Of a DNA stretch of 64,000 nt, positions 34,365 through 52,343 are shown piece by piece (positions within the stretch are counted from its first letter, which is position 1; the number at the start of each line of letters is the position of its first letter). The notes below the pieces were generated by a model, which worked only from the letters and a program-made list of their open reading frames with translations, was not told the DNA's origin and did no database searches. Location: positions 1-64,000 of the IMG/VR virus record IMGVR_UViG_3300022074_000012. The stretch is one strand, 5' to 3'. The position numbers and the translations under genes are program-made. Source of the DNA: a virus.

Positions 34365-34715
34365 ATGAGAAAGTTTGAATTTAGACCTTGGGGTTGGTAC
34401 ATCACTCTTGATGAAGGGATTAACTACAAGGTTAAGAAGATACATTTAAATCCAAACACAAAATTATCACTTCAATACCATCACCATCGTGATGAACATT
34501 GGACAGTGGTGGAAGGTTCTGGTAAAGCGATCGTAAATAAAAACGTTTTTATTATGAATGATGGTGATGATATGTTTATTGCAAAAAAAGCAGTGCATCG
34601 AATGGAAGCAAGTCCAGATGGTGTAACTTTTGTAGAAGTGCAGAGAGGGAAGTGTGATGAGGAAGATATTGTAAGACTACAAGATGATTATGGTAGAGTT
34701 GACAAACAAGCTTAA
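34365..34715 (+). CDS. mannose-6-phosphate isomerase type II cupin (ManC C-terminal-like)
   Basis: RPWG...LSLQYHHHRDEHWTVV...EVQ.G...EDIVRLQDDYGR. Confidence 0.9.
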   Translation: MRKFEFRPWGWYITLDEGINYKVKKIHLNPNTKLSLQYHHHRDEHWTVVEGSGKAIVNKNVFIMNDGDDMFIAKKAVHRMEASPDGVTFVEVQRGKCDEEDIVRLQDDYGRVDKQA

Positions 34716-34757: not shown

Positions 34758-35861
34758 ATGAGAGAGTACAAAAAAACCGCACTTGTTCTTGGTGCAGGTG
34801 GATTTATTGGCAGTCATATGGTAAAGAGACTGCGTAAAGAAGGATATTGGGTAAGAGGTGTAGACCTTAAATACCCTGAGTTTTCTAAGACAGAAGCAAA
34901 CGAATTTGTTTGTATGGATCTTAGAGATGTAGAAGTTGTCCGTAGAGTCATTCGTTTCGGAGGATATACTGGTAACTTTTATTCACAGATTGTAGATAAG
35001 TTCTTAGAACCATTTGATGAGATATATCAGTTTGCTGCTGATATGGGTGGTGCAGGATTTATATTTACAGGAGAAAATGATGCAGACATCATGCATAACT
35101 CTGCTTCAATTAATTTGAATCTGTTAGAAGAACAAAAGAAATGGAATAAAGATAAAAAAACAAATCATACAAAAATATTCTATAGTAGTTCTGCGTGTAT
35201 GTACCCAGAACACAACCAACTAGACCCTAACAATCCAGATTGTCGTGAAGAATCCGCTTACCCTGCTAACCCTGACTCCGAATATGGATGGGAAAAACTC
35301 TTCTCGGAAAGATTATATCTCACTTATAATCGTAACTATGATATACCTGTTTGTGTTGCTCGTTACCATAATATCTTCGGTCCAGAAGGAACATGGGATG
35401 GAGGCAGAGAAAAAGCTCCAGCAGCAATCTGTCGCAAAGTGGCTCAACTCTCGCCGCAAGGTGGAACCATCGAGGTGTGGGGAGATGGCTTACAAACTCG
35501 TTCCTTCCTGTTCATTGATGAATGCATCGAAGCAACTTGGAGACTAATGCAATCAGACTTTATGGGACCTGTGAATATAGGTTCTGAAGAGATGGTTACT
35601 ATTAATCAGTTGGTTGAAACAGCAGCAAAAGTTGCAAACAAGAAAGTTGAAAAGCAACACATACTCGATGCACCTCTTGGTGTTCGTGGACGTAACTCTA
35701 ACAATGATCTTGTGAGAGAAAAACTTGGTTGGGATTATTCTCAATCATTAGAAGAAGGAATACGCAAAACATATAATTGGATATGTTTGCAATTATATAG
35801 CACAACAGAAGAAAATGTGCTACAATCAGAAGAAGAACTTGAATTATTAGCCTCTGGATAA
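34758..35861 (+). CDS. GDP-mannose 3,5-epimerase-like SDR
   Basis: GAGGFIG, AADMGGAGFI, SSACMYP, YGWEK, GGREKAPAAICRK, GVRGRNS. Confidence 0.85.
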   Translation: MREYKKTALVLGAGGFIGSHMVKRLRKEGYWVRGVDLKYPEFSKTEANEFVCMDLRDVEVVRRVIRFGGYTGNFYSQIVDKFLEPFDEIYQFAADMGGAGFIFTGENDADIMHNSASINLNLLEEQKKWNKDKKTNHTKIFYSSSACMYPEHNQLDPNNPDCREESAYPANPDSEYGWEKLFSERLYLTYNRNYDIPVCVARYHNIFGPEGTWDGGREKAPAAICRKVAQLSPQGGTIEVWGDGLQTRSFLFIDECIEATWRLMQSDFMGPVNIGSEEMVTINQLVETAAKVANKKVEKQHILDAPLGVRGRNSNNDLVREKLGWDYSQSLEEGIRKTYNWICLQLYSTTEENVLQSEEELELLASG

Positions 35862-35863
35862 AA

Positions 35864-36637
35864 ATGATACGAATTGATAGTTATGAAGATCTAACAGAAA
35901 AGATTGTTAGATGGTTAAAAGATTACTACTATGAACATAGTATTGATGCATTTGTAATAGGAGTATCAGGTGGAATTGATTCTGCTGTAGTATCTTCTTT
36001 ATGTGCAAGAACAGGACTACCCACCTATGTTGTGTGTATGCCTCTTGATTCTAAATTTCAAAACTCAAAACTCTCTGATGTTCATTCAAAAACATTAGCA
36101 GAAAAGTATGATAATGTTAGAAGAATTGAAATAGAACTTTCGAGTGTATATGAAGGTTTCTTAAAGTCAGTTGAATGGTGGTCTGAAGCACAGCAATATC
36201 ATAAAAAAGAATTCACTGCAAGTCCACATGCAAATGCGAATACAAAATCACGTATTCGTATGGTAACACTGTATCAGATCGCAGGTTCAGTTGGTGGAAT
36301 TGTAGTTGGTACAGGTAACAAAGTGGAGGATTATGGAGTCGGTTTTTATACTAAGTATGGTGACGGTGGTGTTGATATCGCCCCTATTGCTGACCTTTAT
36401 AAATCGGAAGTCTGGGAATTAGGTGAATACCTTGAGGTAGATCAACGTATTGTTGATGCACAACCAACTGATGGACTTTGGGACGACTCAAGAACTGATG
36501 AAACACAACTTGGTGCATCATATCCAGAGTTAGAAGAAGCAATGGAAACAGGCACAGGACCTGGTGTTGAGGTTTTAAATAAATTCAATACATTAAACAA
36601 ACACAAAATGGAGCCAATACCTACATTTAAATTATGA
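35864..36637 (+). CDS. nadE: NH3-dependent NAD+ synthetase
   Basis: GVSGGIDS, NTKSRIRM, GTGNKVE, FYTKYGDG, PTDGLW. Confidence 0.9.
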   Translation: MIRIDSYEDLTEKIVRWLKDYYYEHSIDAFVIGVSGGIDSAVVSSLCARTGLPTYVVCMPLDSKFQNSKLSDVHSKTLAEKYDNVRRIEIELSSVYEGFLKSVEWWSEAQQYHKKEFTASPHANANTKSRIRMVTLYQIAGSVGGIVVGTGNKVEDYGVGFYTKYGDGGVDIAPIADLYKSEVWELGEYLEVDQRIVDAQPTDGLWDDSRTDETQLGASYPELEEAMETGTGPGVEVLNKFNTLNKHKMEPIPTFKL

Positions 36638-37752
36638 AAATTGGATTAATTGGAGCAGGTAGATTAGGAATCTGCCTTGCTTTGTTGATTGAAAAAGCAG
36701 GATATAATGTTCTTGCTTCTGATAATCGGGAAGATTACGTAAGAAATTTACAGAAAGGTATTATTGATACTGCTGAACCAGAAGTTCAACAGTATCTTTC
36801 TAATGCAAATAATATAGAGTTTACTACTGATAATATCAGAGTCATCGCAGAGTGTGATATTATATTTACTCTTGTTGCAACACCTTCTTTAGAAGATGGT
36901 AGTTATGATGTTAGTGCTGTATGGAAAGTTATAGATGATTTTAAAAATGTTCCTATATTATTAGATGAAAAATCACTTATAGTTGGTTGCACTACAAATC
37001 CTGGTGATTGTAATGATTTTCAAAATGCACTTAAAAATACAGGTATAGATGTATTCTATAACCCAGAGTTTATTGCACAAGGATCTATAATAACAGATTT
37101 GCAAAATTCTAATATGGTTATAATTGGTGGAAACGGTAATCATAAATCAGAGTTAGAACAGATATATGAAAAGATACAAATGGGTTTCATTAGTCCATCT
37201 GTTTATTTTATGAGCACTAAAGCAGCAGAGATAACAAAAATTGCTGTTAACTGTTATCTTACTACAAAGATAAGTTATGCAAATATGCTAGGGCAAGTTC
37301 TTACACTATCTGGTATGGAAGATGAGATTGATAATGTATTAAAATCTATTGGTTCAGATAATCGAATAGGTAAAAAATATTTAAAATATGGTTTTGGGTT
37401 TGGTGGTCCTTGTTTTCCAAGAGACAATCGTGCATTCGCATCATATGCAAGTAAGGTCGGTATAGATCATAATCTTGGTAGTATAACTGATGCCTTTAAT
37501 GAAGATCATGCAGTGTTTTTAAAAGAACATTTTCTTTTTAAAAATAAAAAGAAAATACCTTTCTTTTTTAATTATCTATCATACAAACCTAATACTGATA
37601 TTCTTACAGAGAGTCAACAATATCGTCTATGTTTAGATCTTTTAAATGAAGGATATACAGTTTACTGTGCAGATTCATCAATTCAAAATCAATGTGACTC
37701 ACGAATTCTTTTTGAAAAACCAGATGAAGAAGTTTTTGAAATTAAATTATGA
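36634..37752 (+). CDS. UDP-glucose/GDP-mannose 6-dehydrogenase family
   Basis: GAGRLG, NPEF, AEITK, GFGGPCFPRD. Confidence 0.9.
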   Translation: MKIGLIGAGRLGICLALLIEKAGYNVLASDNREDYVRNLQKGIIDTAEPEVQQYLSNANNIEFTTDNIRVIAECDIIFTLVATPSLEDGSYDVSAVWKVIDDFKNVPILLDEKSLIVGCTTNPGDCNDFQNALKNTGIDVFYNPEFIAQGSIITDLQNSNMVIIGGNGNHKSELEQIYEKIQMGFISPSVYFMSTKAAEITKIAVNCYLTTKISYANMLGQVLTLSGMEDEIDNVLKSIGSDNRIGKKYLKYGFGFGGPCFPRDNRAFASYASKVGIDHNLGSITDAFNEDHAVFLKEHFLFKNKKKIPFFFNYLSYKPNTDILTESQQYRLCLDLLNEGYTVYCADSSIQNQCDSRILFEKPDEEVFEIKL

Positions 37753-38588
37753 TTGGATCTAATACTTTAGGAACTAACGGAAGATTAGGTAATCAAATGT
37801 TTCAGTACGCCTCTTTGAGAGGTATTGCCGATAAACATGGTTATGATTTTTGTATACCACCAGAGGATCATCCTACCTATGCAGATTATGCTTTATTTTT
37901 AGCATTTAAAATGGAGGGTATTAAGACAGGATTAGTTAATGGTGACACAGTATCAGAATCTGGATATGAGTTTGATGAAAATCTTTTTAATACTTGTCCT
38001 GATAATGTAAACATTAATGGATACTATCAGACAGAAAAATATTTTAAACATGCAGAAAAAAATGTAAGAAAAGATTTTACATTTAAAGATGATATTCTAT
38101 CAGCATGTAAAGAATATATGGATCAGTATGATGATATATCTTTTTTACATATTCGTAGAGGTGATAATGTAGGTCGTGAAGATTATTATCCTATGCCAAC
38201 CCCAGAGTGGATGGGTGATATGGTTGAAAAACATTTTTCAAATAAACCAATATTAATTTGCACCGATGATTTAGATTGGGTTCAATCACAAGATGCTTTT
38301 AAAGATGATAAGTATATAATTTCAGAGACAAGATTATACTACGACACTCCTGTAATGATAGGTGGTGGTTCATATGCAAAATCTCTTATACCCTACTATG
38401 ATTTGTGTATGATGTCATTATGTAATGGTGCAATAATTGCCAACTCATCACTATCATGGTGGGGTGCATGGTTACAGGCATCACCAGATAAAAAAATTGT
38501 GGCTCAAGACCCTTGGTATGGTCCGCAACTTGCATCTAATAATACAAAAGATTTGTATCCCGAATCTTGGATTGTGGAGAAGATATGA
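37749..38588 (+). CDS. GT11 alpha-1,2-fucosyltransferase-like
   Basis: GRLGNQMFQYA, HIRRGD, ANSSLSWWGAW. Confidence 0.9.
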   Translation: MIGSNTLGTNGRLGNQMFQYASLRGIADKHGYDFCIPPEDHPTYADYALFLAFKMEGIKTGLVNGDTVSESGYEFDENLFNTCPDNVNINGYYQTEKYFKHAEKNVRKDFTFKDDILSACKEYMDQYDDISFLHIRRGDNVGREDYYPMPTPEWMGDMVEKHFSNKPILICTDDLDWVQSQDAFKDDKYIISETRLYYDTPVMIGGGSYAKSLIPYYDLCMMSLCNGAIIANSSLSWWGAWLQASPDKKIVAQDPWYGPQLASNNTKDLYPESWIVEKI

Positions 38589-41141: not shown

Positions 41142-42009
41142 TTTAAAAAATACAACATTTATAATTCCTCTAAGAATTGATACAGGAGATCGTCTTCGTA
41201 ATGTAATCCTATCAACAGCATATCTTTTATATAATTTTGATACTACGGTTATGATAAAAGAGGTTGATTCAGAACGACGTTTTGAAACATTTGCTTTACC
41301 AATAATTGAAAGGTTGGTAGATACAAATAACCTTGTTCATATCTTTGAAGAAGAGACAAGAACTGATGATGCATTTCATCGCACAAAAGTTCTGAATGAT
41401 ATGGTCATGGAATCTACAACTGATATTGTAGTTAATTATGATACTGATTTAATTCTGCCAGTTAGTAGTTACACTGACGCAGTTAAAATGTTGAATGGTG
41501 AATATGATGTTGTTTATCCATTTCGTTATGGTAATCATGGTGAGAGAAAAGTAAATCTTGGATTCACTATTGAAACACAGGAAGATATGGATGACTTTGA
41601 AAACAGTGATTTTGTATCTAACTTTTTAAACAATGATTTTGATCATGAATGTTTTGATGATCGTTACTTTTATTATCAAAGTGATAGGGGTCAGGGTTGG
41701 GCAGAGTATGGTATGGTTCAATTCTTTAATCGTCAAGTTTATATTGATGGTTACTTAGAGAATGAAGGATTTATTGCATACGCACCAGAAGATGTTGAAA
41801 GACATCATCGTTGGAAAACACTTGGATATAATATTGGAAGAGTTGACAATCATGCATATCATTTAGAACATCAAAGAACACAGAATTCATGGTATCATAA
41901 TCCCCATATGGAAAGAAATAATAAATTGTGGGAAGATTTAAAAGTACTGAGTAAAGAAGATTTAATATCTTATTATAAAAAACAAGAGTATTATACTAAT
42001 AGATTATGA
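41131..42009 (+). CDS. GT-A fold glycosyltransferase (GT2/GT7-like)
   Basis: TFIIP, YDTD (DxD), ENEGF..YAPED, YHLEH. Confidence 0.8.
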   Translation: MKTDLKNTTFIIPLRIDTGDRLRNVILSTAYLLYNFDTTVMIKEVDSERRFETFALPIIERLVDTNNLVHIFEEETRTDDAFHRTKVLNDMVMESTTDIVVNYDTDLILPVSSYTDAVKMLNGEYDVVYPFRYGNHGERKVNLGFTIETQEDMDDFENSDFVSNFLNNDFDHECFDDRYFYYQSDRGQGWAEYGMVQFFNRQVYIDGYLENEGFIAYAPEDVERHHRWKTLGYNIGRVDNHAYHLEHQRTQNSWYHNPHMERNNKLWEDLKVLSKEDLISYYKKQEYYTNRL

Positions 42010-42755
42010 GTGATGTATATTTAAAGGCTTGGCATGGTGGTCTTGGTGATGCATTACAATTTTCTACCTTACCAGAGGAGTTCTCAAAACAACAAGGAAG
42101 AAAGACATATATTGTAGCAGATGCACCTTTTAGAAATGATGGTATCTATGATTTAGTATGGGATAAAAATCCTTATGTTCATGGTAAAAAATTTGGTGAG
42201 TGGAATGCAGGTGACTTACCTTCTATTCCTTACAGAGAAGATGGTTTTCTTGAAGAGAATGGTACTAAAAATATGATTTCTAACTGGGAAAAGTTTCATG
42301 GTCTTCAACCAACTAATAAGTATCCTAAAGTTTATTATGAACCAGAAAAAGATAAGGGTGTAAAGGATCTATTCATTGTAGATTTTACATCTACCACTGT
42401 GAGTGATAGTAAAGAAGATGTGATCAAATGTTTAGACCAACTTAGGAATGATTATTCTGATCGTAAATTTGTATCAGTATCATTTGAAGATATTACGCCA
42501 ACTAAAGATTTGAGTGACGACATTAAATTTGATGGATATATAGAAGTGGAGAATATTTTTAGATACTGTGATTTAATATCATCAGTATATGGTTATGTTT
42601 CACTTCATAGTGGTGGTACTCATCTGAGTTCTGCATTAAAAGAATATTCACCAAACTTAAAAAGCATTTGCATTTTATCAAAAGAGTGGTATAATGAACA
42701 TGAGGTTCTAGATAATCATTTCCTTTTTGATAACATTGAGTATTTGAAATACTAA
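42006..42755 (+). CDS. putative GT-B (GT9-like) glycosyltransferase
   Basis: GGLGDALQ and SGGTHLS motifs. Confidence 0.5.
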   Translation: MSDVYLKAWHGGLGDALQFSTLPEEFSKQQGRKTYIVADAPFRNDGIYDLVWDKNPYVHGKKFGEWNAGDLPSIPYREDGFLEENGTKNMISNWEKFHGLQPTNKYPKVYYEPEKDKGVKDLFIVDFTSTTVSDSKEDVIKCLDQLRNDYSDRKFVSVSFEDITPTKDLSDDIKFDGYIEVENIFRYCDLISSVYGYVSLHSGGTHLSSALKEYSPNLKSICILSKEWYNEHEVLDNHFLFDNIEYLKY

Positions 42756-42756
42756 T

Positions 42757-43143
42757 ATGATTGACCAAATTATTACACCATTACCAGAAGTCGTAGATAG
42801 ATATACAATCTGCCAATTAAAGTTAGAGAGATTAGATCACACACAGATTGATGTTGATTCTATGAAAGAACAACTTGAGTATTATAAGAAAGGTATAGAT
42901 TTTACAAACACACAACTAATAAAATTATCTGAGGATTTATATAATATTAATGGTAGAATCTGGGATACAGAGGGATCTATCCGTGCAGGATTAGATGATG
43001 AATTAGGGTATGATGAGATTGGTAAAAGAGCAGTGCAAGTAAGAGATTTAAACAGAGTAAGAATGAGTATAAAAAATGACATCACCGAGTTAACAGGTGA
43101 AGGATTTAAAGATTGTAAAATGAATTACGCAGGAGAAGGATGA
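42757..43143 (+). CDS. helical hypothetical protein of glycan loci (DUF6165-like)
   Basis: EVVDRYTI..LK...L..IN..IWD.E...N..R..IK. Confidence 0.55.
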   Translation: MIDQIITPLPEVVDRYTICQLKLERLDHTQIDVDSMKEQLEYYKKGIDFTNTQLIKLSEDLYNINGRIWDTEGSIRAGLDDELGYDEIGKRAVQVRDLNRVRMSIKNDITELTGEGFKDCKMNYAGEG

Positions 43144-44114
43144 CAAAAAGTTTAGTCACAGGTGGCGCAGGATTTATAGGATCAAATCTTGTTGACCAAC
43201 TTATAGAAATAGGACATAAAGTAATTGTAATTGATAATGAGTATTCTGATGCTCATGAACAGTTCTATTATAATGATAAAGCAGAATATCATAACTTTGA
43301 TATTCGTGATGCTGCAACAAGATCCTTATATGATGATGTAGATTATGTGTTTCATATTGCAGCAGAAGCACGTATCGGACCTTCAATCGAAAGTCCAATC
43401 GAAGCAGTAAGTATTAACTCTGTTGGTACTTGTACTGTTTTACAATATGCAAGAGAAGCAGGTGTCAAGAGAGTTGTATACTCATCAACATCATCTGCAT
43501 ATGGTTTACAAGAACCACCTCATGTAGAGGCACTACCAGATAATTGTCTGAATCCATATTCAGTATCAAAAGTAAATGGTGAAAAATTATGTAAAATGTA
43601 TACAGATCTTTTTGGATTAGAAACTGTGATTTTTAGATACTTTAATGTATATGGAAATAGACAACCAATTAAAGGGCAGTATGCACCAGTGATTGGAATA
43701 TTTTTAAGACAACTAGAGAATGATCAAGAACTCACTATCGTTGGTGATGGTGAACAAAGAAGAGATTTTGTGAACGTCAAAGATGTAGTTCAAGCAAACA
43801 TATTAGCAGCAACTAAAAAATTAGATAAGGATGCTATTGGTCAGGTATATAATGTGGGTAGTGGTATTAATTATTCTGTAAATGAAATCGCAAGTATGAT
43901 ATCTGATTTTTCAATTAATATTGATGCACGACCAGGTGAGGCAAAAGAAACATTAGCACACATTAGTAGAATAAATGGTACACTAGGATGGGAACCAACT
44001 ATTAAAGTTGAGGATTGGATTGCAGAGCAATTAACTCCTGATGTCCCACCCGTAAATCAAAATCTAATTAGAAGAACTTTTGATAGATTTAAAAATTGGT
44101 TACATGGTGAATAG
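43140..44114 (+). CDS. UDP-sugar 4-epimerase-like SDR
   Basis: TGGAGFIGS, YSVSK, FRYFNVYG, GDGEQRRDF. Confidence 0.9.
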   Translation: MTKSLVTGGAGFIGSNLVDQLIEIGHKVIVIDNEYSDAHEQFYYNDKAEYHNFDIRDAATRSLYDDVDYVFHIAAEARIGPSIESPIEAVSINSVGTCTVLQYAREAGVKRVVYSSTSSAYGLQEPPHVEALPDNCLNPYSVSKVNGEKLCKMYTDLFGLETVIFRYFNVYGNRQPIKGQYAPVIGIFLRQLENDQELTIVGDGEQRRDFVNVKDVVQANILAATKKLDKDAIGQVYNVGSGINYSVNEIASMISDFSINIDARPGEAKETLAHISRINGTLGWEPTIKVEDWIAEQLTPDVPPVNQNLIRRTFDRFKNWLHGE

Positions 44115-44879
44115 ATGACTTGGAATTTAATTACAGTTGCTTTTGGTGATCAAAAATATAAACAAGGGCAACAATTTTTGACAAAACAAGCAAAGGAATA
44201 TGGTGTAAATCATATAGAATATTCTGATGAAGATTTGTTTAACTCAGAACTTTATAAAGAATATCCTGAGTGGATGTCTGCTGAGAATAATTATGGTTGG
44301 TTTACATGGAAACCATACTTTATACTACAGGCTATGGAGAATTTAAAAGAAGGTGATAAAGTTCTTCTTTTAGATACTCTTGATATATTTCATCCAGACA
44401 TTTTTGACTTTGTTGATGAGGTTATGGGTGATGATGTATGTTTACTACCATTAGGAAACTTTAGAAATGGAGATCATACTAAGAAAGATTGTTTTGTTTA
44501 TATGGAATGTGATGATGAAGATTATCATGAATCAAAACAATTAGAAGCAGGTTTTACTTTCTGGAAAGTTTGTGAAGAATCAAAGAAAATTCTAAGAGAA
44601 TGGTTAGGTTGGTGTTTAGATGAGAAAGTTAATGGAGAATTAACTGCATTTTCAAATCTAAAAGAAGATGATGGATTTGAAGGTTGTCGTCATGATCAAA
44701 GTATTCTTACTAATCTAGCAGTAAGAGATGGTCTGTCTGTTGTGGGTCAAGATATAAGAAGTTTGATTGAATGTAATGCTGATTATTGGTATGAAAGATA
44801 TTTCAAAGGACAAGCACAATTGTATAGACCAATAGACACTCATATGGTAAAAATTAAAGATGAGGTAGATTACTTATGA
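44115..44879 (+). CDS. putative glycosyltransferase
   Basis: WKPYFIL...LLD...RHDQSIL. Confidence 0.55.
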   Translation: MTWNLITVAFGDQKYKQGQQFLTKQAKEYGVNHIEYSDEDLFNSELYKEYPEWMSAENNYGWFTWKPYFILQAMENLKEGDKVLLLDTLDIFHPDIFDFVDEVMGDDVCLLPLGNFRNGDHTKKDCFVYMECDDEDYHESKQLEAGFTFWKVCEESKKILREWLGWCLDEKVNGELTAFSNLKEDDGFEGCRHDQSILTNLAVRDGLSVVGQDIRSLIECNADYWYERYFKGQAQLYRPIDTHMVKIKDEVDYL

Positions 44880-45190
44880 GCATTTATGTTGTTGATTTAG
44901 ATGGAACTCTTTGTTATACAGAACCTAATCCTGATGGTCATGGTATGAAATACTATGAAGCAACACCTTATCCAGAAAGAATTGAAAAAATTAATAAATT
45001 GTGGGAAGAGGGACATACAATTATCATAGAGACAGCAAGAGGTTGTGGAAGTAAGATAAATCATTATGAAGATACCTTTAATCAACTACGTTCTTGGGGA
45101 TTAAAATTTAACTCTTTAAGAACTGGTGTTAAATTTGGTGGAGATTTCTTTATTGATGATAAAGGTATTAATAGTGAGGATTTTTTTTAA
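44876..45190 (+). CDS. HAD-family phosphatase (capsule-biosynthesis type)
   Basis: DLDGT, TARG, K...FIDDK. Confidence 0.85.
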   Translation: MSIYVVDLDGTLCYTEPNPDGHGMKYYEATPYPERIEKINKLWEEGHTIIIETARGCGSKINHYEDTFNQLRSWGLKFNSLRTGVKFGGDFFIDDKGINSEDFF

Positions 45191-46521
45191 TGGGTTCAGT
45201 AAATAAAATTATTAAGAAGTCACCTAATTTTGTTAAGAGTGCTTTCTATAAGTATATTCCATTCAAATATAGGTATGGAAAAGTTTATGGTGAAACTCTT
45301 GATTTTTTATTAGAATCACAACATTGGAATGAAGAAAAATTAAAAGAATATCAACTACAAGAACTTCAAAGATTATTAAAACATTGTTATACAAATGTTC
45401 CTTACTATCGAAACATTTTTATAAAGAATGGTTGGAGTCCTATGGATTTTAAATCAGTTGATGATTTAAAAGAATTTCCTGTTCTAACAAAAAGAAAAAT
45501 TATAGATCATAATCAAATGCTTATTGCAGATGATATGAGAGATAAGAAATCGTTTCCAATCACAACGAGTGGTTCTACTGGTGATAAATTAAAATTCTAT
45601 GTTGATGATGATTGTCTCAAAAAAGAAGCAGCTTTTAATATGAGAGCATACATTCAACAGGGAGCAAAGATGTATGATACTCCGAGTGTATGGTTAAGAA
45701 GATATGTACCTAAAGATAGTGAATCACCTTTATGGTATTATGATAAAGAGTTGAAGAGATTATACATGTCTGCATATCATCTTAATGATAGGACTATAGG
45801 TGATTACGTTGCCAAAATAAATGAAGGTAACTATCAAACAATGTGTACATATCCCTCTGCTGCATATATCTTTGCTTGTCTGTGTGAAGAGAATAATTTA
45901 TCTCTTACAAATATTAAAAAGATTCATACAACATCTGAAGTATTGTTAGAGAAGTGGTATAATAAAGTTCAAGAGGTTTTTGGCATTACACCTTGTGGAC
46001 ATTATGGACAAATGGAGAAAGTTTCTTTCATGAATCAGACAGAAGATTCACGGGACTTAAAACAAAATTTAGAATATGGAGTTGATCATTTCTATGATAA
46101 TGAAGATGGCACATATGGATTGATTTCAACTGGTTTTATTAATTACTACATGCCATTTATTCGATACAAGACAGAAGATACTTTTGTAATTAAAGATGGT
46201 AAAATTAAAGATGTGAATGGTAGAAGTAGTGACATACTTGTATCTAAAGATGGTTCAAGATTGCCTGGTGTAAACTTTTACAGTTGGATTGATAAGAAAA
46301 TGCCATCAATAAAACTATTTCAAATTATTCAAAAGACACATGATGATATTATCTTTAACTATGTTCAAAATCCTGATCATAATAATGATATCACAGAGGA
46401 TATATTAGGTGGTTTATCATCACGTTTAGGTAACATGAATTATTCTGTGAATAAAGTTGACGATATAAAAAGAAATCTTAAAACACAAAAGTTTAAAAAC
46501 ATAATCAACGAGGTTGTATGA
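45190..46521 (+). CDS. CapK/phenylacetate-CoA-ligase-like adenylate-forming enzyme
   Basis: VPYY, PVLTK, TTSGSTG, YGQME, MPFIRYKTED, GRSSD. Confidence 0.85.
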   Translation: MGSVNKIIKKSPNFVKSAFYKYIPFKYRYGKVYGETLDFLLESQHWNEEKLKEYQLQELQRLLKHCYTNVPYYRNIFIKNGWSPMDFKSVDDLKEFPVLTKRKIIDHNQMLIADDMRDKKSFPITTSGSTGDKLKFYVDDDCLKKEAAFNMRAYIQQGAKMYDTPSVWLRRYVPKDSESPLWYYDKELKRLYMSAYHLNDRTIGDYVAKINEGNYQTMCTYPSAAYIFACLCEENNLSLTNIKKIHTTSEVLLEKWYNKVQEVFGITPCGHYGQMEKVSFMNQTEDSRDLKQNLEYGVDHFYDNEDGTYGLISTGFINYYMPFIRYKTEDTFVIKDGKIKDVNGRSSDILVSKDGSRLPGVNFYSWIDKKMPSIKLFQIIQKTHDDIIFNYVQNPDHNNDITEDILGGLSSRLGNMNYSVNKVDDIKRNLKTQKFKNIINEVV

Positions 46522-47750
46522 AGATAAGTTTTATTGGACTTGGAAAATTAGGACTACCTCTTGTGTGTTGTTTAGCAAGGTCAGGCAATCAAATTTTAGG
46601 TGTAGATAAGAATGAATATATTCTTGAGAAACTAAACAATAATGAATTACCTTTCTATGAGCCAGGTCTTACTGATATATTCCCACATAATAATTTGATA
46701 GGTTTTACTGACTCATATAGTAGAGCAGTCGAAGAAGCAGAAACATCTATCATATTAGTTAATACTCAACTTGGTGATAGTGGTTACTCATCAGAGTTTG
46801 TAGAGAGTGCGTTGATTGATTTATCAGTTAATCTAAAGAAAAGTAAGAAAGATTATCATCTTATTATAATATCATCAACTGTCTTGCCAGGATCAATTAG
46901 TAATCTTATACACTTAGTAGAAAAAATATCAGGACGTAAGTATGGTAAAGGTTTTGGTTTTGCATATGTTCCAGATTTTGTTAGGCTTGGAAATGTAATT
47001 TATGATTTTAAAAATCCAGAATTCTTTTTAATTGGTGCAAATAATCAAAGAGATATTAGTATGGTGCAAGAAATATGGAAAGACTTTCATGATAACGAAC
47101 CACCACTCAAGATACTCACATTAGAAGAAGCAGAAGTAGCTAAAGTATCTTTGAATGCTTTTGTTGTAAACAAGATTGCATTCGTAAACTTTTTAGGACA
47201 ACTATGTGATGGTATGGATAATGTGAACGTACATAATATTACTGATGCCATAGGATTAGATAAAAGAATATCACCATACTTTTTTAAGTTTGGAACACCT
47301 TATGGTGGCACATGTTTTCCAAGAGATTCTGCTGCATTTATTAGGTTTGCATCGAACCGAAAAAGAGATGCAAAGAATTTAAAATTTGCTGATGAAGTAA
47401 ATGCAGATTTGTATCAAAGCATACTCGATAAATGTGTTGTATATGATAAGGTTGGTATCATAGGAATATCATTCAAACCAAACTCACCTGTTGTTATAGG
47501 TTCTCCATCTTCAAAGTTGATACAGGATTTAATTGAAAAGAATATTACTGTATTTGCATATGATGAGTTTGATGAATCATTCAGTAATCTTAACGGACTT
47601 GAAGACAAAATAATTAAATGTAAAACACCTCAAGAATGTGTAGACAAATCTGATGCAATTGCTATAATGCATCCAGATAATAAATTTTCTTCACTGAATA
47701 CAAGTGATAAATTTGTAATTGATAATTGGGGAGTATTAGATGGGAATTAA
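46518..47750 (+). CDS. nucleotide-sugar 6-dehydrogenase
   Basis: GLGKLGLP, STVLPG, AEVAK, YGGTCFPRD, SFKP. Confidence 0.9.
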   Translation: MKISFIGLGKLGLPLVCCLARSGNQILGVDKNEYILEKLNNNELPFYEPGLTDIFPHNNLIGFTDSYSRAVEEAETSIILVNTQLGDSGYSSEFVESALIDLSVNLKKSKKDYHLIIISSTVLPGSISNLIHLVEKISGRKYGKGFGFAYVPDFVRLGNVIYDFKNPEFFLIGANNQRDISMVQEIWKDFHDNEPPLKILTLEEAEVAKVSLNAFVVNKIAFVNFLGQLCDGMDNVNVHNITDAIGLDKRISPYFFKFGTPYGGTCFPRDSAAFIRFASNRKRDAKNLKFADEVNADLYQSILDKCVVYDKVGIIGISFKPNSPVVIGSPSSKLIQDLIEKNITVFAYDEFDESFSNLNGLEDKIIKCKTPQECVDKSDAIAIMHPDNKFSSLNTSDKFVIDNWGVLDGN

Positions 47751-48777
47751 ATTTAGACAAAGTATAAACAATCTACAGACCTATAATGTTGGTGGACGTT
47801 CTGATCTATCATCTGATTGGGAATGTTTTGATTGGAATGAATCAGAGTTTCCTCCTACAAATAAAGTATTTGAAGTAATGAAATCTTTCTATCGTTATGA
47901 AAGATATCCTGACATCACTGCAAAATTATTAAAGAGTAAATTATCTGAATATGTTTCTCTACCAGTTGATTTTATTGAGATATATAATGGTTCTGATGAT
48001 GCACTGAAAGATATCATAACTGTGTTTGTAGATAAAGAAACTCATGTTCTATCTTATCAACCATCATATACACAAGTGAATACTTTCATCACAACAAATA
48101 CAGAGAATTACATGAAAGTAAATATCAAAAATCCACTAGGTGAGCATGAATATGATTTTGATTATTGTAAAGTTGCGAATGTAGTTTATCTTGTTAATCC
48201 AAACAATCCAACAGGAAAATTATTAGAAGTAGATGAGATAGAAAAATTATTAAAAACTTATCCAGATACTTTGTTTATTGTTGACGAAGCATACTATGAA
48301 TTTGCAAAACAATCTTGTAGTCATCTAGTTATATCACATAAAAATTTAATCGTTACCAGAACATTTTCTAAAGCATTTGGATTAGCATCTGTGCGATTGG
48401 GTTATTGTATGGGACATCCTGATACACTATCACACTTGAGAAAGATAAGAAATGGTAAGGCAGTAAACTCACTTGCACAACTATGTGGAGTAGCAGCTTT
48501 AGATGACTTAGATTATCTTGATTCACGTATTGATGAAATGAATGATGCTAAGAAGTTTTTTGTTGACAATCTTCCTCACGGATACTATGCAGTTGATAGT
48601 CAAACTAACTTTGTTCTTTTAAAAACACCTGACTCTAAAGAACTTTTAAATAAAATGAAAAATAATAAAATCCTCATAAGAGATAGAAGTTCCTTTGACA
48701 ATCTTGAAAATTGTGTTAGAATAACCATAGGGTCGAAGAAACAAATCATAAGAGTTTTGGATGTAATTAATGCATAG
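47740..48777 (+). CDS. HisC/CobD-like PLP-dependent aminotransferase
   Basis: NGSD, NPNNPTG, VDEAY, RTFSKAFGLASVRLGY, VRITIG. Confidence 0.9.
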   Translation: MGIKFRQSINNLQTYNVGGRSDLSSDWECFDWNESEFPPTNKVFEVMKSFYRYERYPDITAKLLKSKLSEYVSLPVDFIEIYNGSDDALKDIITVFVDKETHVLSYQPSYTQVNTFITTNTENYMKVNIKNPLGEHEYDFDYCKVANVVYLVNPNNPTGKLLEVDEIEKLLKTYPDTLFIVDEAYYEFAKQSCSHLVISHKNLIVTRTFSKAFGLASVRLGYCMGHPDTLSHLRKIRNGKAVNSLAQLCGVAALDDLDYLDSRIDEMNDAKKFFVDNLPHGYYAVDSQTNFVLLKTPDSKELLNKMKNNKILIRDRSSFDNLENCVRITIGSKKQIIRVLDVINA

Positions 48778-49588
48778 TATTATTGTTACCATTCATAATG
48801 GTGCAAGAAGATTGCCAAATGGTGAGATACTTTTAGAGAAGGTATTGGATGGTATTGTCAATAATACAGTAGGAGATTATGAACTCCTTTGTATGCTTGA
48901 TGGTTGCACTGATGATTCAGATAAAGTTGTAAGTAAGTATGAAAAAGCAAGAGCAATCGTCTTGCCTGATGTATTTGAATTACTTACGAATAATGCAGCA
49001 TTTAAAGAAGCAAAAGGTGAATATGTTATTGTAGTTCAAGATGATCAAGTCATATCTGAATATGGTTGGAATCAAAGAATGCAAAAACCATTTGATGAGT
49101 TTGATGATGTCTTTGCAGTCACTGCAATGTGTGCACATAATTGGATTATAAATCCAAATACATATCATCTTTATAATCCTACAGCACCAGTTACTGGTTG
49201 GTGTGATATTCTAGAACATGTAGATCATGCATCAGCAGTTCATGGATTACCTCGAAATGTATTTGCTGTGAGAAGTAGTGCTAATCGAGGTCCTTTAATG
49301 ATTAATCTTGATGATCTTAAAAAGATAAATTATTTGGATGAAAAATTTGCTCCTTGTGATATGGATGATCATGACTTAATGTATAGAGCACATTTACAAC
49401 TAGGTAAAGTATGTGGTGCTTATGTTATTGATATGGAGTCAGATACATCTTGGAGTGGTGCTAGAGTTACTGGAGACCTACCCATATGGGCATATAAATC
49501 ACAACATAAAAACAGTAGAATCTTCTATGATAGATATAGTAGTATGTTTACTGATCGTCGTATTATTGACAATAGAGAGTTACCATGA
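48770..49588 (+). CDS. GT2 family glycosyltransferase
   Basis: SIIVTIHN, DGCTDDS, QDD, DDHDL. Confidence 0.8.
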   Translation: MHSIIVTIHNGARRLPNGEILLEKVLDGIVNNTVGDYELLCMLDGCTDDSDKVVSKYEKARAIVLPDVFELLTNNAAFKEAKGEYVIVVQDDQVISEYGWNQRMQKPFDEFDDVFAVTAMCAHNWIINPNTYHLYNPTAPVTGWCDILEHVDHASAVHGLPRNVFAVRSSANRGPLMINLDDLKKINYLDEKFAPCDMDDHDLMYRAHLQLGKVCGAYVIDMESDTSWSGARVTGDLPIWAYKSQHKNSRIFYDRYSSMFTDRRIIDNRELP

Positions 49589-50181
49589 GAATTGAATTAG
49601 AACGTTGGCAAGCTGCTCAAACAGAAGAGTTTAGTCATCATCAGGATCTTAGAATAGAAGCATACATTACTGCGACTAATGTTATTGCAAAATATTTTGG
49701 TATAGATTATAAAAAAGATTTCAAAGATAAAGTAATTGTTCAAGTTGGTGCAGGACCAAGAGGATCTATTCTCAGTACAGAGGGTAATTTTAAAAGAGGT
49801 TTGATAGTCGAACCACTTATAGATCGTTGGCCATCTAATATTAGAGAAGATTATGAGAAGGTAGGTATTGAAATTATCGCAGCACCTTATGAAGACTTAG
49901 ATATAGATGAGAAGGTAGATGAAACATGGTTCTTTAATGTAGTTCAACATGTATTTGATCCAAAGGAACAATTAGAACTTGCAAAGAAAACATCTAAAGT
50001 TGTTCGTGTATTTGAACCTATTGGAACTGGAACTGATACTGCACATCCACATTACATTACTGAAGAAACATTCACTGATGTATTAGGTAACTTCGGACAA
50101 ATCTTTAAGGGTGGAACTGAAGATGGTTTCTTTAGTTGTGATTGTTATTATGGGACTTGGTATGAATCTGATAACGTTTAG
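49585..50181 (+). CDS. class I SAM-dependent methyltransferase-like
   Basis: QVGAGPRG, VEP, NVVQHVFDP. Confidence 0.6.
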   Translation: MRIELERWQAAQTEEFSHHQDLRIEAYITATNVIAKYFGIDYKKDFKDKVIVQVGAGPRGSILSTEGNFKRGLIVEPLIDRWPSNIREDYEKVGIEIIAAPYEDLDIDEKVDETWFFNVVQHVFDPKEQLELAKKTSKVVRVFEPIGTGTDTAHPHYITEETFTDVLGNFGQIFKGGTEDGFFSCDCYYGTWYESDNV

Positions 50182-50977
50182 TTTATTTGGAGATAATCCA
50201 CTTTATTGTCAAGGTGCAGTAGAGAATGCAAACACTGCAAGAGTCATCTACCCTGAGTGGACTGCAAGATTTTATGTCGCTCAAGATGTACCAGAACATT
50301 ATATTGAAGAGATAGAAGATTATGGTGCAGAAGTTGTAAGATGTGAAAAGAAAAATTCTTATGATGGACTGAACTGGAGATTCAGACCTCTTCATGACCC
50401 TGACGTAGAATATTGGATAAGTCGTGATGCAGATAGTCGATTAAGTTGGAGAGAAAGAAATGCAGTAGATGAGTGGATGGAGTCAGATAAAGCAGCACAT
50501 CTACTTCGTGATTGTCATAATCATGGTTATACAATCATGGCAGGTATGTTTGGTATTAATAATAAATTATTTCATAAAAGATATGGAATGATTAACTTAG
50601 ACAATATTAATGCAAATTACAGAGAGGCAGATCAAACTGTCTTAGAACAACATCTTTGGCCACTAATTAAAGATGATCATGTTTGTCATGATCATTGGAG
50701 GAACTCTGAGATTGTCGGTGAACCAACTTACCAATTAGGAGATCATGTTCATTACAACAAAGCATATGGTGTTGGATTAAAATATTATTTAAAAGAACAT
50801 GTATATAAAGTTTTGAGTAACATATATCCAGAGGGTCAAGATAGTCGTCCGTTCCCTGATCATTTACCTATGGAACATGGTATATTTGTTGGACAGGTTA
50901 TAGAAGTTGATGGTAAACCTAGAATGAATATGGATGTTCGTTGGGAATATGAACTAAGAGGTTTATCTTATGAGTAG
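50162..50977 (+). CDS. putative GT-A-like protein of glycan loci
   Basis: FSLFG...WRF...RDADSR...AGMFG...DQ..L. Confidence 0.55.
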   Translation: MNLITFSLFGDNPLYCQGAVENANTARVIYPEWTARFYVAQDVPEHYIEEIEDYGAEVVRCEKKNSYDGLNWRFRPLHDPDVEYWISRDADSRLSWRERNAVDEWMESDKAAHLLRDCHNHGYTIMAGMFGINNKLFHKRYGMINLDNINANYREADQTVLEQHLWPLIKDDHVCHDHWRNSEIVGEPTYQLGDHVHYNKAYGVGLKYYLKEHVYKVLSNIYPEGQDSRPFPDHLPMEHGIFVGQVIEVDGKPRMNMDVRWEYELRGLSYE

Positions 50978-52343
50978 TTTCCATATTATTGGAACAGGTG
51001 CTTGTGGTTTTCTGAGAGCATATCAAACTCTTAAGAATCATATACCATTAAAGTATAAAGGAGGTAGAGGTAAATATCAAAACAGTTTTCAAAACTGGAA
51101 TGATAATGGATTGATATGGAATATTGAATCATTATCAAAAGAAGAAAGAGTAAGAAGAGTTAGTCAACATAATACTACAACTAATATCACTCATTCATAT
51201 TTAAAATATGTTCCAGAGTTTGTAGGATTAGATCCTAACTTAAAATTTTTATGTTTGAAGGGAGATAAACATCATTCTATTTTTAACTTAGCAGTTTCTT
51301 GGGGTTATCGTAATCCTTGTTTTGTGAAAGAAAGGAGAATAGGTGCAGGTTTTAATCGTTATACTGTAGATGAGTTTCCAAATCATAGTGATTGTGATAA
51401 TGAGTTTGATGCAACAGAAAAATATTGGGAAGAGTATTATCAGATTGCAGATATCATGCAAGACAATTATCCGTTTAACTTTTTTATAGTTGATGCAATA
51501 AAATTTTTTAGTGATATAGAATATAGAACTGATGTACTATCAAAGGTAGATGTTAATATTGGAGATGAACCACTTCTTCCTGTTAATATCAATAACTTGA
51601 GTATAAGCACTACATTACATGGTGGCATAGGTAATAACTTACTTCAGATGGGAGAGGTAATATCATTTTGTAAAAAACATAATCTTACTGAACCATTCTT
51701 TGGAACTTGGGATCTATGGGATGGTGGTGGTAAGTATCCTCCACCATATAATGCAGATAGATTTCTTGGAGGACATGAGGGTGATCATAATACAATTAGA
51801 AAAACATTTCCAAATTTAAATTGGAAGGGAGATCTGTCCGCTGACTACGACACTACATTTATTATAAATGATATGTTTAGATTCAGTGATTGTGATGAAC
51901 TTGATTATGTAAGAAAGAAATTATCTATTACAGATAAGACAATGCCAAACACTGTTTCCTTGCATTTGAGATATTGTACTCAACCTGTTGATGATCATGT
52001 CAATGGATATGTTGATGATACATTTTACATTGAATGCTTTAAACACATACCAGAAGAAGTACATGTCTATATCTTTTCTGATGATATTTCAAAATCAAGA
52101 GGTAAATTACATTGGTTCCAAAAAAATTTCCCCCAAAAATTTTCATGTGTAGAGTCGGACTCTTTTCAATCTCTTCAAATGATGGTAGAATGTGAGTATC
52201 ACATACTTCATGTATCTACGTTTAGTTTTTGGTCTGCATTTCTAGACATAAATCAACCGAATAGTAAAGTATTTTATCCTAAGTCCTTTACAGATACACA
52301 TAGTTCGTTTATGATACCTTATAAAGAATGGCAAATGATTTAA
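50970..52343 (+). CDS. two-domain protein: sulfotransferase-like N-terminus fused to GT11-like domain
   Basis: IIGTGACG at N-terminus; GGIGNNLLQ, SLHLR, IFSDD, STFSFWSAFL in C-half. Confidence 0.6.
   Translation: MSSFHIIGTGACGFLRAYQTLKNHIPLKYKGGRGKYQNSFQNWNDNGLIWNIESLSKEERVRRVSQHNTTTNITHSYLKYVPEFVGLDPNLKFLCLKGDKHHSIFNLAVSWGYRNPCFVKERRIGAGFNRYTVDEFPNHSDCDNEFDATEKYWEEYYQIADIMQDNYPFNFFIVDAIKFFSDIEYRTDVLSKVDVNIGDEPLLPVNINNLSISTTLHGGIGNNLLQMGEVISFCKKHNLTEPFFGTWDLWDGGGKYPPPYNADRFLGGHEGDHNTIRKTFPNLNWKGDLSADYDTTFIINDMFRFSDCDELDYVRKKLSITDKTMPNTVSLHLRYCTQPVDDHVNGYVDDTFYIECFKHIPEEVHVYIFSDDISKSRGKLHWFQKNFPQKFSCVESDSFQSLQMMVECEYHILHVSTFSFWSAFLDINQPNSKVFYPKSFTDTHSSFMIPYKEWQMI

Follow-up and report, generated by a model that had tools for sequence, protein, structure and literature searches.

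Amide-substituted uronic acids alter the charge and antigenicity of surface glycans, and the only pathway leading to them whose enzymes have been characterised one by one is that of the Campylobacter capsule. The analysis presented here concerns a block of overlapping genes (g14 to g18) that might follow a comparable logic in a virus, found in the first 64,000 nucleotides of the IMG/VR record IMGVR_UViG_3300022074_000012 (this whole stretch being “the window” hereafter; the record itself is 94,871 bases long, with an estimated completeness of 49%). In C. jejuni HS:2, Cj1441 makes UDP-glucuronic acid, Cj1437 converts dihydroxyacetone phosphate (DHAP) to (S)-serinol phosphate, and Cj1436, a phosphoserine decarboxylase, yields ethanolamine phosphate; the C-terminal domain of Cj1438 forms the amide with ATP once the glucuronic acid is in the chain, upon which the HAD phosphatase Cj1435 removes the phosphate (PMC11800397). 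A second precedent, supported by genetics, comes from a 2026 study, in which VpsH of V. cholerae, a PaaK/CapK-like protein, was required for glycine to be added to the N-acetylhexosaminuronic acid (L-GulNAcA) of the lipid-linked disaccharide of Vibrio polysaccharide (PMC13463779). On the viral side, the glycan/lipopolysaccharide (LPS) island of the T4-like cyanophage S-SCSM1 comprises GDP-mannose 3,5-epimerase (GME), Gmd/Fcl and fucosyltransferases, and a mosaic make-up is known for cyanomyovirus glycan islands (PMC9602691).

The window encodes psbA (photosystem II D1), hli, nrdAB (class Ia ribonucleotide reductase) and T4-type tail-fibre and virion proteins, and it is the ribonucleotide reductase, the T4-type proteins and D1 that identify it as a fragment of a T4-like cyanomyovirus. 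A glycan island occupies approximately 34.4–53.1 kb of it (19 kb, about 22 genes, all on the plus strand and with overlapping stops and starts), and within this island five contiguous open reading frames (ORFs), overlapping by 1 to 11 bases, make up the block in question:

44876..45190, plus strand: g14, a minimal, cap-less HAD-superfamily phosphatase of 104 amino acids (aa), with HAD motifs I–IV
45190..46521, plus strand: g15, a CapK/PaaK-type ANL adenylate-forming ligase (PF27533 CapK_C, ANL motifs, AlphaFold2 model)
46518..47750, plus strand: g16, an NDP-sugar 6-dehydrogenase (NDP, nucleoside diphosphate) of the uronic acid-forming kind, with three UDPG_MGDP_dh domains
47740..48777, plus strand: g17, a HisC-family pyridoxal 5'-phosphate (PLP) enzyme of aminotransferase subfamily I-beta (Aminotran_1_2, E 5e-42)
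48770..49588, plus strand: g18, a GT2-family glycosyltransferase (PF00535, E 1.4e-9, 38.5 bits against a cut-off of 23.3)

The original prediction had seen these five genes as a phage-borne counterpart of the Campylobacter uronamide pathway; the arrangement of the ORFs is as it described, and all five family assignments hold up in profile and motif searches. As for the pathway, the logic of four of the genes withstands scrutiny, being backed by their co-occurrence, the fusion of the ligase to the PLP enzyme, the nature of the HisC paralogue and the VpsH precedent, whereas the membership of the GT2 does not, and g16 cannot be called specific for UDP-glucose.

The reading preferred here, to which we assign a probability of roughly 0.6, is that a four-enzyme core (g14 to g17) attaches a small amino-alcohol or a similar amine to a hexuronic acid through an amide, and does so inside a phage glycan island. 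The first step would be the making of an NDP-hexuronic acid by g16, a dehydrogenase by family whose sugar substrate is a proposal. In the second, g17, which has kept its phosphate-binding site and has an altered imidazole pocket, would draw on a central metabolite to make a small amine carrying a phosphate, serinol phosphate from DHAP being the leading candidate product and ethanolamine phosphate from phosphoserine the alternative one. The third would be carried out by g15, whose motifs and fold are those of an adenylate-forming enzyme: it may activate the C6 carboxylate as an acyl-adenylate and transfer it to the amine, with the sugar either still nucleotide-bound or already part of the glycan. 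Lastly, g14, which possesses the HAD motifs, would remove the phosphate from the amide-linked phospho-amine.

Set against C. jejuni HS:2, the proposed phage roles are the same ones (a uronate dehydrogenase, a PLP enzyme acting on a phosphorylated three-carbon substrate, an ATP-dependent C6-amide ligase and a HAD phosphatase), whereas the cassette differs in being carried by a phage without a capsule export system and, possibly, in using a GDP-linked sugar nucleotide, given its GME and GT11 partners. With VpsH, it shares the ligase family, the modified group (a uronic acid carboxylate) and the presence of an NDP-sugar dehydrogenase gene nearby; VpsH, in contrast, has neither a PLP-enzyme nor a phosphatase partner, and its substrate is a bactoprenyl-linked intermediate, lipid-carrier machinery being absent from the phage island. 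With cyanophage islands such as that of S-SCSM1, the shared elements are GME, the GT11/fucosyltransferase-type transferases and a mannose-6-phosphate isomerase-type cupin; the ligase–PLP–HAD–dehydrogenase module, on the other hand, is not mentioned there (PMC9602691), nor is it described in the rest of the cyanophage literature searched, in which GME and fucosyltransferase genes are.

The evidence that carries the preferred reading is, above all, the persistence of the gene set. Although a single-sequence scan of viral contigs gave nothing, an alignment of ligase homologues gave 34 viral and 5 bacterial loci, all the ORFs of which were compared with the island genes; the counts given here rest on 31 non-redundant loci (viral contigs and Acidobacteriota chromosomes, with ligase identities of 38–79%) and on a distance of 6 kb. 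The HAD phosphatase and the PLP enzyme are each found near the ligase in 29 of the 31 loci, and the dehydrogenase on the same strand within 6 kb in 27, with three further Acidobacteriota loci having it adjacent on the opposite strand; a GME homologue on the same strand is within that distance in 19 loci, as is a GT11 in 19, whereas a g18-like GT2 is so in just 4. The conserved core is, therefore, the HAD phosphatase, CapK ligase, NDP-sugar 6-dehydrogenase and HisC-like PLP enzyme, usually with GME, and of the five-gene co-occurrence that had been anticipated it is these four genes that recur together (27–29 of 31 loci). The GT2 drops out of the set and is one of many island transferases, not specific to the module.

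Gene order speaks for the same association, as both ligase–dehydrogenase–PLP and ligase–PLP–dehydrogenase orders are present across lineages, which argues that the genes are held together by more than inherited synteny. In divergent lineages, HAD, ligase, PLP enzyme, dehydrogenase and GME form a single contiguous block (the GME homologue being contiguous with the dehydrogenase in divergent loci and lying beside the cassette in Acidobacteriota as well). In the window, GME is located about 9 kb upstream of the cassette, GT11a and g09 are also upstream, and the cassette is flanked by a g13/GT2 (g18) sub-module; the order ligase–dehydrogenase–PLP–GT11a–g09 is the one seen in loci L001–L008, L011 and L028, and in the majority of cyanophage loci it is an orthologue of g05 that comes immediately after the cassette. 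With hli, psbA or nrdAB located in the flanks of several of the closest loci, a cyanophage origin is confirmed.

What is more, the ligase and the PLP enzyme are a single 829-aa protein in three loci (L012, L013 and L027), and of 35 longer ligase homologues, 31 combine CapK with Aminotran_1_2 (PF00155) at identities to the phage ligase from 56% down to 29%, one other combining CapK with GT4 domains. Such repeated fusions are strong evidence that the product of the PLP enzyme feeds the ligase, and that the ligase family works on glycans. The cellular context agrees: on a Pyrinomonadaceae chromosome, the cassette lies among genes for Wza, Wzc, Wzx, GT1, GT2 and an FkbM methyltransferase, i.e., in an exopolysaccharide locus.

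It is these observations that make very improbable the weakest alternative, a loose set of LPS-type auxiliary genes of bacterial origin that share no pathway and are adjacent merely through island shuffling, since, even though cyanomyovirus islands are mosaic (PMC9602691) and the GT2, GT11 and g13/g10 genes are indeed reshuffled from one locus to the next, the four of the core remain joined amid changing surroundings in both phages and Acidobacteriota, with recurrent fusion of two of them, so that synteny and fusions largely refute it.

The CapK family, by its domain composition, has further partners beyond the PLP enzyme. Among the four proteins P0152, P0154, P0155 and P0153, CapK_C is fused to radical SAM domains in three (one of them from a Hodarchaeota metagenome-assembled genome) and, in the remaining one, to the GT4 glycosyltransferase domains mentioned above.

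Turning to the ligase itself, the C-terminal amidoligase of Cj1438 is of the ATP-grasp type, and the expectation that an ANL-family ligase stands in its place is borne out by g15, an adenylating enzyme of ANL/CapK fold and motifs; among those island ORFs that were compared with Pfam, there was no ATP-dependent ligase of any other family. The g15 protein matches PaaK-like models of NCBIfam, its protein cluster is listed with PF27533 (CapK_C), and its ANL motifs (A3 TSGSTG at 126, A7 YKTED at 326, A8 GRSSD at 344 and A10 Lys434) are invariant in 19 sequences. Its AlphaFold2 model (pLDDT 89.2) has the PaaK fold, with BT_0428 and PaaK1/2 as the top Foldseek matches (E ~1e-21); the next structural neighbours are NatL2, AjiA1 and ClxA, which we take to be CoA-independent ligases of the PaaK family. 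For comparison with VpsH, a Vibrio sp. locus with the domain order vpsA-B-D-E-F-G-H-I-J-K was located and the protein in its VpsH position was used: residues 83–442 of g15 align to it with 23% identity (E 5e-22, hhalign probability of 99.8%), and, judged via this protein, g15 is a distant homologue of VpsH. We propose it to be a putative uronate:amine amide ligase.

The alternative that survives best, unlikely as we hold it to be, is that the substrate of g15 is a non-sugar carboxylic acid (be it an amino, a hydroxy or an aryl acid, and perhaps what the PLP enzyme produces), which would be turned into an adenylate or a CoA thioester and would then acylate a sugar hydroxyl or amino group, while the dehydrogenase supplies an unrelated uronate for the same glycan. 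The best sequence and structure matches of g15 are, indeed, acyl-CoA or aryl-acid ligases (PaaK, BT_0428, 2-hydroxyisobutyryl-CoA ligase and NatL2), and the fusion of CapK to radical SAM elsewhere speaks for functional diversity in the family. The dehydrogenase, however, accompanies the ligase in 30 of the 31 loci, also where the gene order has changed, and the core comes without an amino-sugar aminotransferase, an acyl carrier or an acyltransferase; the phosphate-binding site of the PLP enzyme and its phosphatase partner fit a phospho-amine nucleophile, not an acyl donor, and the only CapK-like enzyme with genetic data, VpsH, acts on a uronic acid (PMC13463779).

As regards the PLP enzyme, the best NCBIfam model for g17 is hisC (TIGR01141), at 253.8 bits, which is under the curated cut-off of 276.55. 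Two cassette-bearing Pyrinomonadaceae genomes have a separate HisC of 364–371 bits next to cassette copies of 235 and 248 bits, and the cassette copy of a third genome of this group reaches 253 bits on the same model. In an alignment of 28 distinct cassette proteins with three true HisCs (that of E. coli and two housekeeping ones), the Schiff-base lysine, the arginine binding the PLP phosphate, the Asn/Asp/Tyr residues and the pair of arginines for the substrate phosphate (Arg322 and Arg335 in E. coli) do not vary among the cassette proteins (in g17: Lys211, Arg219, Asn156, Asp182, Tyr185, Arg314 and Arg327). E. coli Gly111-Met112, in contrast, is replaced by Thr/Ser-Gln, and Tyr243 by Lys, in 28/28 cassette proteins, with Gly-Met and Tyr retained in 3/3 true HisCs. 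The corresponding residues of the M. tuberculosis enzyme (Met129 and Tyr261*, equated with E. coli Met112 and Tyr243 by constant numbering offsets) belong to a cleft of four residues in which the imidazole ring sits (PMC4703992). Taken together, the score under the cut-off, the separate housekeeping HisC and the pocket changes mark g17 as a paralogue with an altered substrate pocket, not a true housekeeping HisC.

Because the phosphate arginines are kept and the imidazole pocket is altered, the substrate of g17 is very probably a phosphate ester in which the imidazolylmethyl group has given way to one that is small and polar. Serinol phosphate is histidinol phosphate with a hydroxyl replacing the imidazole, which makes a DHAP-to-serinol-phosphate transaminase the leading candidate; an alternative would be phosphoserine, either decarboxylated to ethanolamine phosphate or being itself the amine, in which case its carboxylate could pair with the new Lys.

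Improbable, by comparison, is a working histidinol-phosphate aminotransferase, be it as an auxiliary gene boosting host histidine or as a source of histidinol phosphate, which would be joined to the uronate before the HAD enzyme takes off its phosphate, the model for this being the HAD-type histidinol phosphatase. In its favour, hisC is the best-scoring model, most of the HisC active-site residues are kept, and g14 has a weak match to HAD-IIIA, the subfamily of the HisB phosphatase domain. Yet, besides the score and the pocket substitutions already given, neither hisD nor hisB was found in the whole 94.9-kb record (the original prediction had noted no other his genes in the stretch it saw), the neighbours are glycan genes, and a histidine auxiliary gene would leave the fusion to the ligase unexplained.

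Several points nevertheless weigh against the amide pathway preferred here. The substrates of all the cassette enzymes are deduced from sequence; g17 keeps Tyr15, Asp86 and Tyr110, which contact histidinol phosphate in true HisC, so that its sequence remains compatible with activity on this compound; loci L014 and L018 have no PLP enzyme, so the amine may come from elsewhere or differ; the identity to the VpsH-position protein is only 23%, and VpsH uses free glycine, an amino acid, not a phospho-amine; and the ligase was found in no cultured phage in the searches of deposited phages and PHROG.

The least secure of the five family calls, by database E-values, is that of g14 as a HAD phosphatase. 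Its matches are weak (Pfam HAD_PNKP, E 0.005; TIGR01689, a capsule biosynthesis phosphatase model, E 3e-4; PDB 9iqw, “capsule biosynthesis protein”, E 1.5e-5), with phrog_1238 at E 9e-22, and the motifs DLDGTL, ETARG, Lys and DDK are all present and kept in at least 90% of 35 homologues. The original prediction had cast it as the counterpart of Cj1435; with about 104 aa against some 25.7 kDa, this minimal HAD enzyme is not an orthologue of it. In locus L008 (11675–12457, plus strand), a paralogue of the small HAD protein continues at its C-terminus into a domain bearing an HxGH-type motif like that of cytidylyltransferases, a hint that a CDP- or NDP-activated phospho-substituent may be a further product of some islands.

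The sugar, too, may differ from that of Campylobacter. That g16 works specifically on UDP-glucose cannot be read from its matches: the protein scores 259 bits on TIGR03026 and passes no equivalog model (206 bits vs. 670 for the UGDH model), and it is about equally distant from UGDH (PDB 3vtf, 161 bits) and the GDP-mannose dehydrogenase AlgD (1mfz, 149 bits), UDP and GDP preference not being separated by the comparisons with PDB and plasmid proteins. Its catalytic GGTCFPRD motif, including the catalytic Cys, is kept in 31 homologues. As a GME homologue and GT11 transferases are the usual partners of the cassette, a GDP-linked derivative of an L-hexose may be the sugar here, in place of UDP-glucuronate, a GDP-linked L-hexuronic acid being plausible, if unproven, as the nucleotide sugar. 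The island genes most relevant to this are the following, of which the cupin points to a supply of GDP-mannose:

34365..34715, plus strand: g01, a cupin of the mannose-6-phosphate isomerase/GMP type (C-terminal region of TIGR01479, E 6.6e-27)
34758..35861, plus strand: g02, the GME homologue (PDB 2c59, Arabidopsis GME, E 7.7e-84)
37749..38588, plus strand: g05, a GT11 (GDP-fucose-type) transferase (PF01531, E 5e-14)

A bolder version, which we deem distinctly unlikely, would have the module, the GME homologue and GT11 produce an undescribed nucleotide sugar, a GDP-L-hexuronic acid of the L-galacturonic or L-guluronic type bearing a serinol or ethanolamine amide, to be installed in the cytoplasm on virion proteins (the fibres or the neighbouring 2107-aa protein); if true, abundant marine cyanophages would be glycosylated viruses with a virus-specific sugar.

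Two observations concern the vicinity of GME homologues. Directly after that of the window, at 35864–37752, a homologue of NadE-type NAD synthase (TIGR00552, E 3.8e-51) is encoded in overlap with g04 (372 aa), a second NDP-sugar dehydrogenase; the former could supply NAD, or could amidate an NDP-uronate to a primary uronamide, and the pair was not found beside the cassette in the other loci, with only weak matches to g04 in L029 and L032. On a Pyrinomonadaceae chromosome (L038, 12494–14737, minus strand), the cassette-adjacent GME-like epimerase carries an intein with a LAGLIDADG homing endonuclease (Hint, Intein_splicing and LAGLIDADG_3).

Where the finished sugar might go is constrained by the rest of the island. 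Its enzymes are a mannose-6-phosphate isomerase-type cupin, the GME homologue, the NadE-like enzyme, two NDP-sugar dehydrogenases and three SDR epimerases/reductases; its transferases are four GT11, one GT2 and one GT25 (about eight soluble transferases in all), and several of its proteins are of no recognised kind. A hydrophobicity scan of the 22 island ORFs found no polytopic membrane protein, the maximum being one hydrophobic segment per protein, from which it follows that the island is without flippase, polymerase and initiating transferase; a self-contained Wzx/Wzy or ABC export pathway was rejected for this reason. The acceptor would, therefore, be either a glycan of the host, lipid-linked or on its surface, or a protein of the phage. 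DNA, also named as a possible target in the original prediction, is an unlikely one, the island being made up of GDP-sugar enzymes together with transferases (GT11, GT25 and GT2) of the kind usual for polysaccharides; the scanned ORFs, which are a part of those in the window, included no gene for base modification.

The cassette is widespread in uncultured marine myoviruses, more than 80 protein clusters having ≥65% identity to the ligase, and the block recurs near-identically in metagenomes of seawater and of viruses that stem from several separate studies of 2018–2025 (rows possibly from the source sample having been set aside). Deposited phages are a different matter: tblastn of the ligase against 50,697 phage records gave only two fragments of ≤25% identity, in faecal phage records, searches of deposited phages by megablast/blastn yielded no informative relative, and among the PHROG families there is none for the ligase. 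Contigs from RNA libraries (metatranscriptomes) of two studies cover most of the block, a weak sign of expression, as DNA carry-over is possible and strand and transcript ends are not shown. Over window positions 43000–51000, some of these RNA-library contigs are identical and many 90–95% alike, which indicates several co-circulating strains of the island in seawater.

The chemistry in question is, then, already known from the Campylobacter capsule, and the ligase family has a genetic precedent; what is new is the different ligase and phosphatase, possibly a different sugar, and the viral carrier. If the preferred amide pathway is correct, the cassette would be a second, independent enzymatic solution (an ANL ligase with a minimal HAD), present in marine myoviruses and in the exopolysaccharide loci of soil Acidobacteriota, and in cyanophages it would mean that, during infection, a glycan of modified charge is made under the direction of the virus, with a bearing on superinfection exclusion, grazing or virion surface properties in the ocean's dominant phototroph–virus system. 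The ligase–PLP fusion and the invariant Gln/Lys pocket can, furthermore, serve as markers for re-annotating genes misnamed “histidinol-phosphate aminotransferase” or “phenylacetate-CoA ligase”.

The surroundings of the cassette in the window deserve a few words of their own. Immediately upstream, overlapping the start of the HAD gene, is the following gene:

44115..44879, plus strand: g13, a 254-aa protein, mainly viral, with no family match

No Pfam, NCBIfam or PHROG match was found for g13; its closest neighbours in the ESM Atlas are viral clusters, the nearest named one being Glyco_transf_34 at 0.96 (GT-A-like, a weak lead). The g18-like GT2, where present, travels with g13-like and g10-like genes, g10 being mainly known from viruses and without a family assignment, and the three (g10 at 42006–42755, g13 at 44115–44879 and g18 at 48770–49588) form a joint sub-module in a minority of loci (L009, L010, L015, L018, L020 and L026). 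On the 3' side of the GT2, at 49585–50977, are two ORFs, g19 and g20, neither with a Pfam or NCBIfam match. The sole match of g19 (198 aa) is phrog_3603, of unknown function; g20 (288 aa) has a GTG start, overlaps g19 by 70 bases and has one N-terminal hydrophobic segment.

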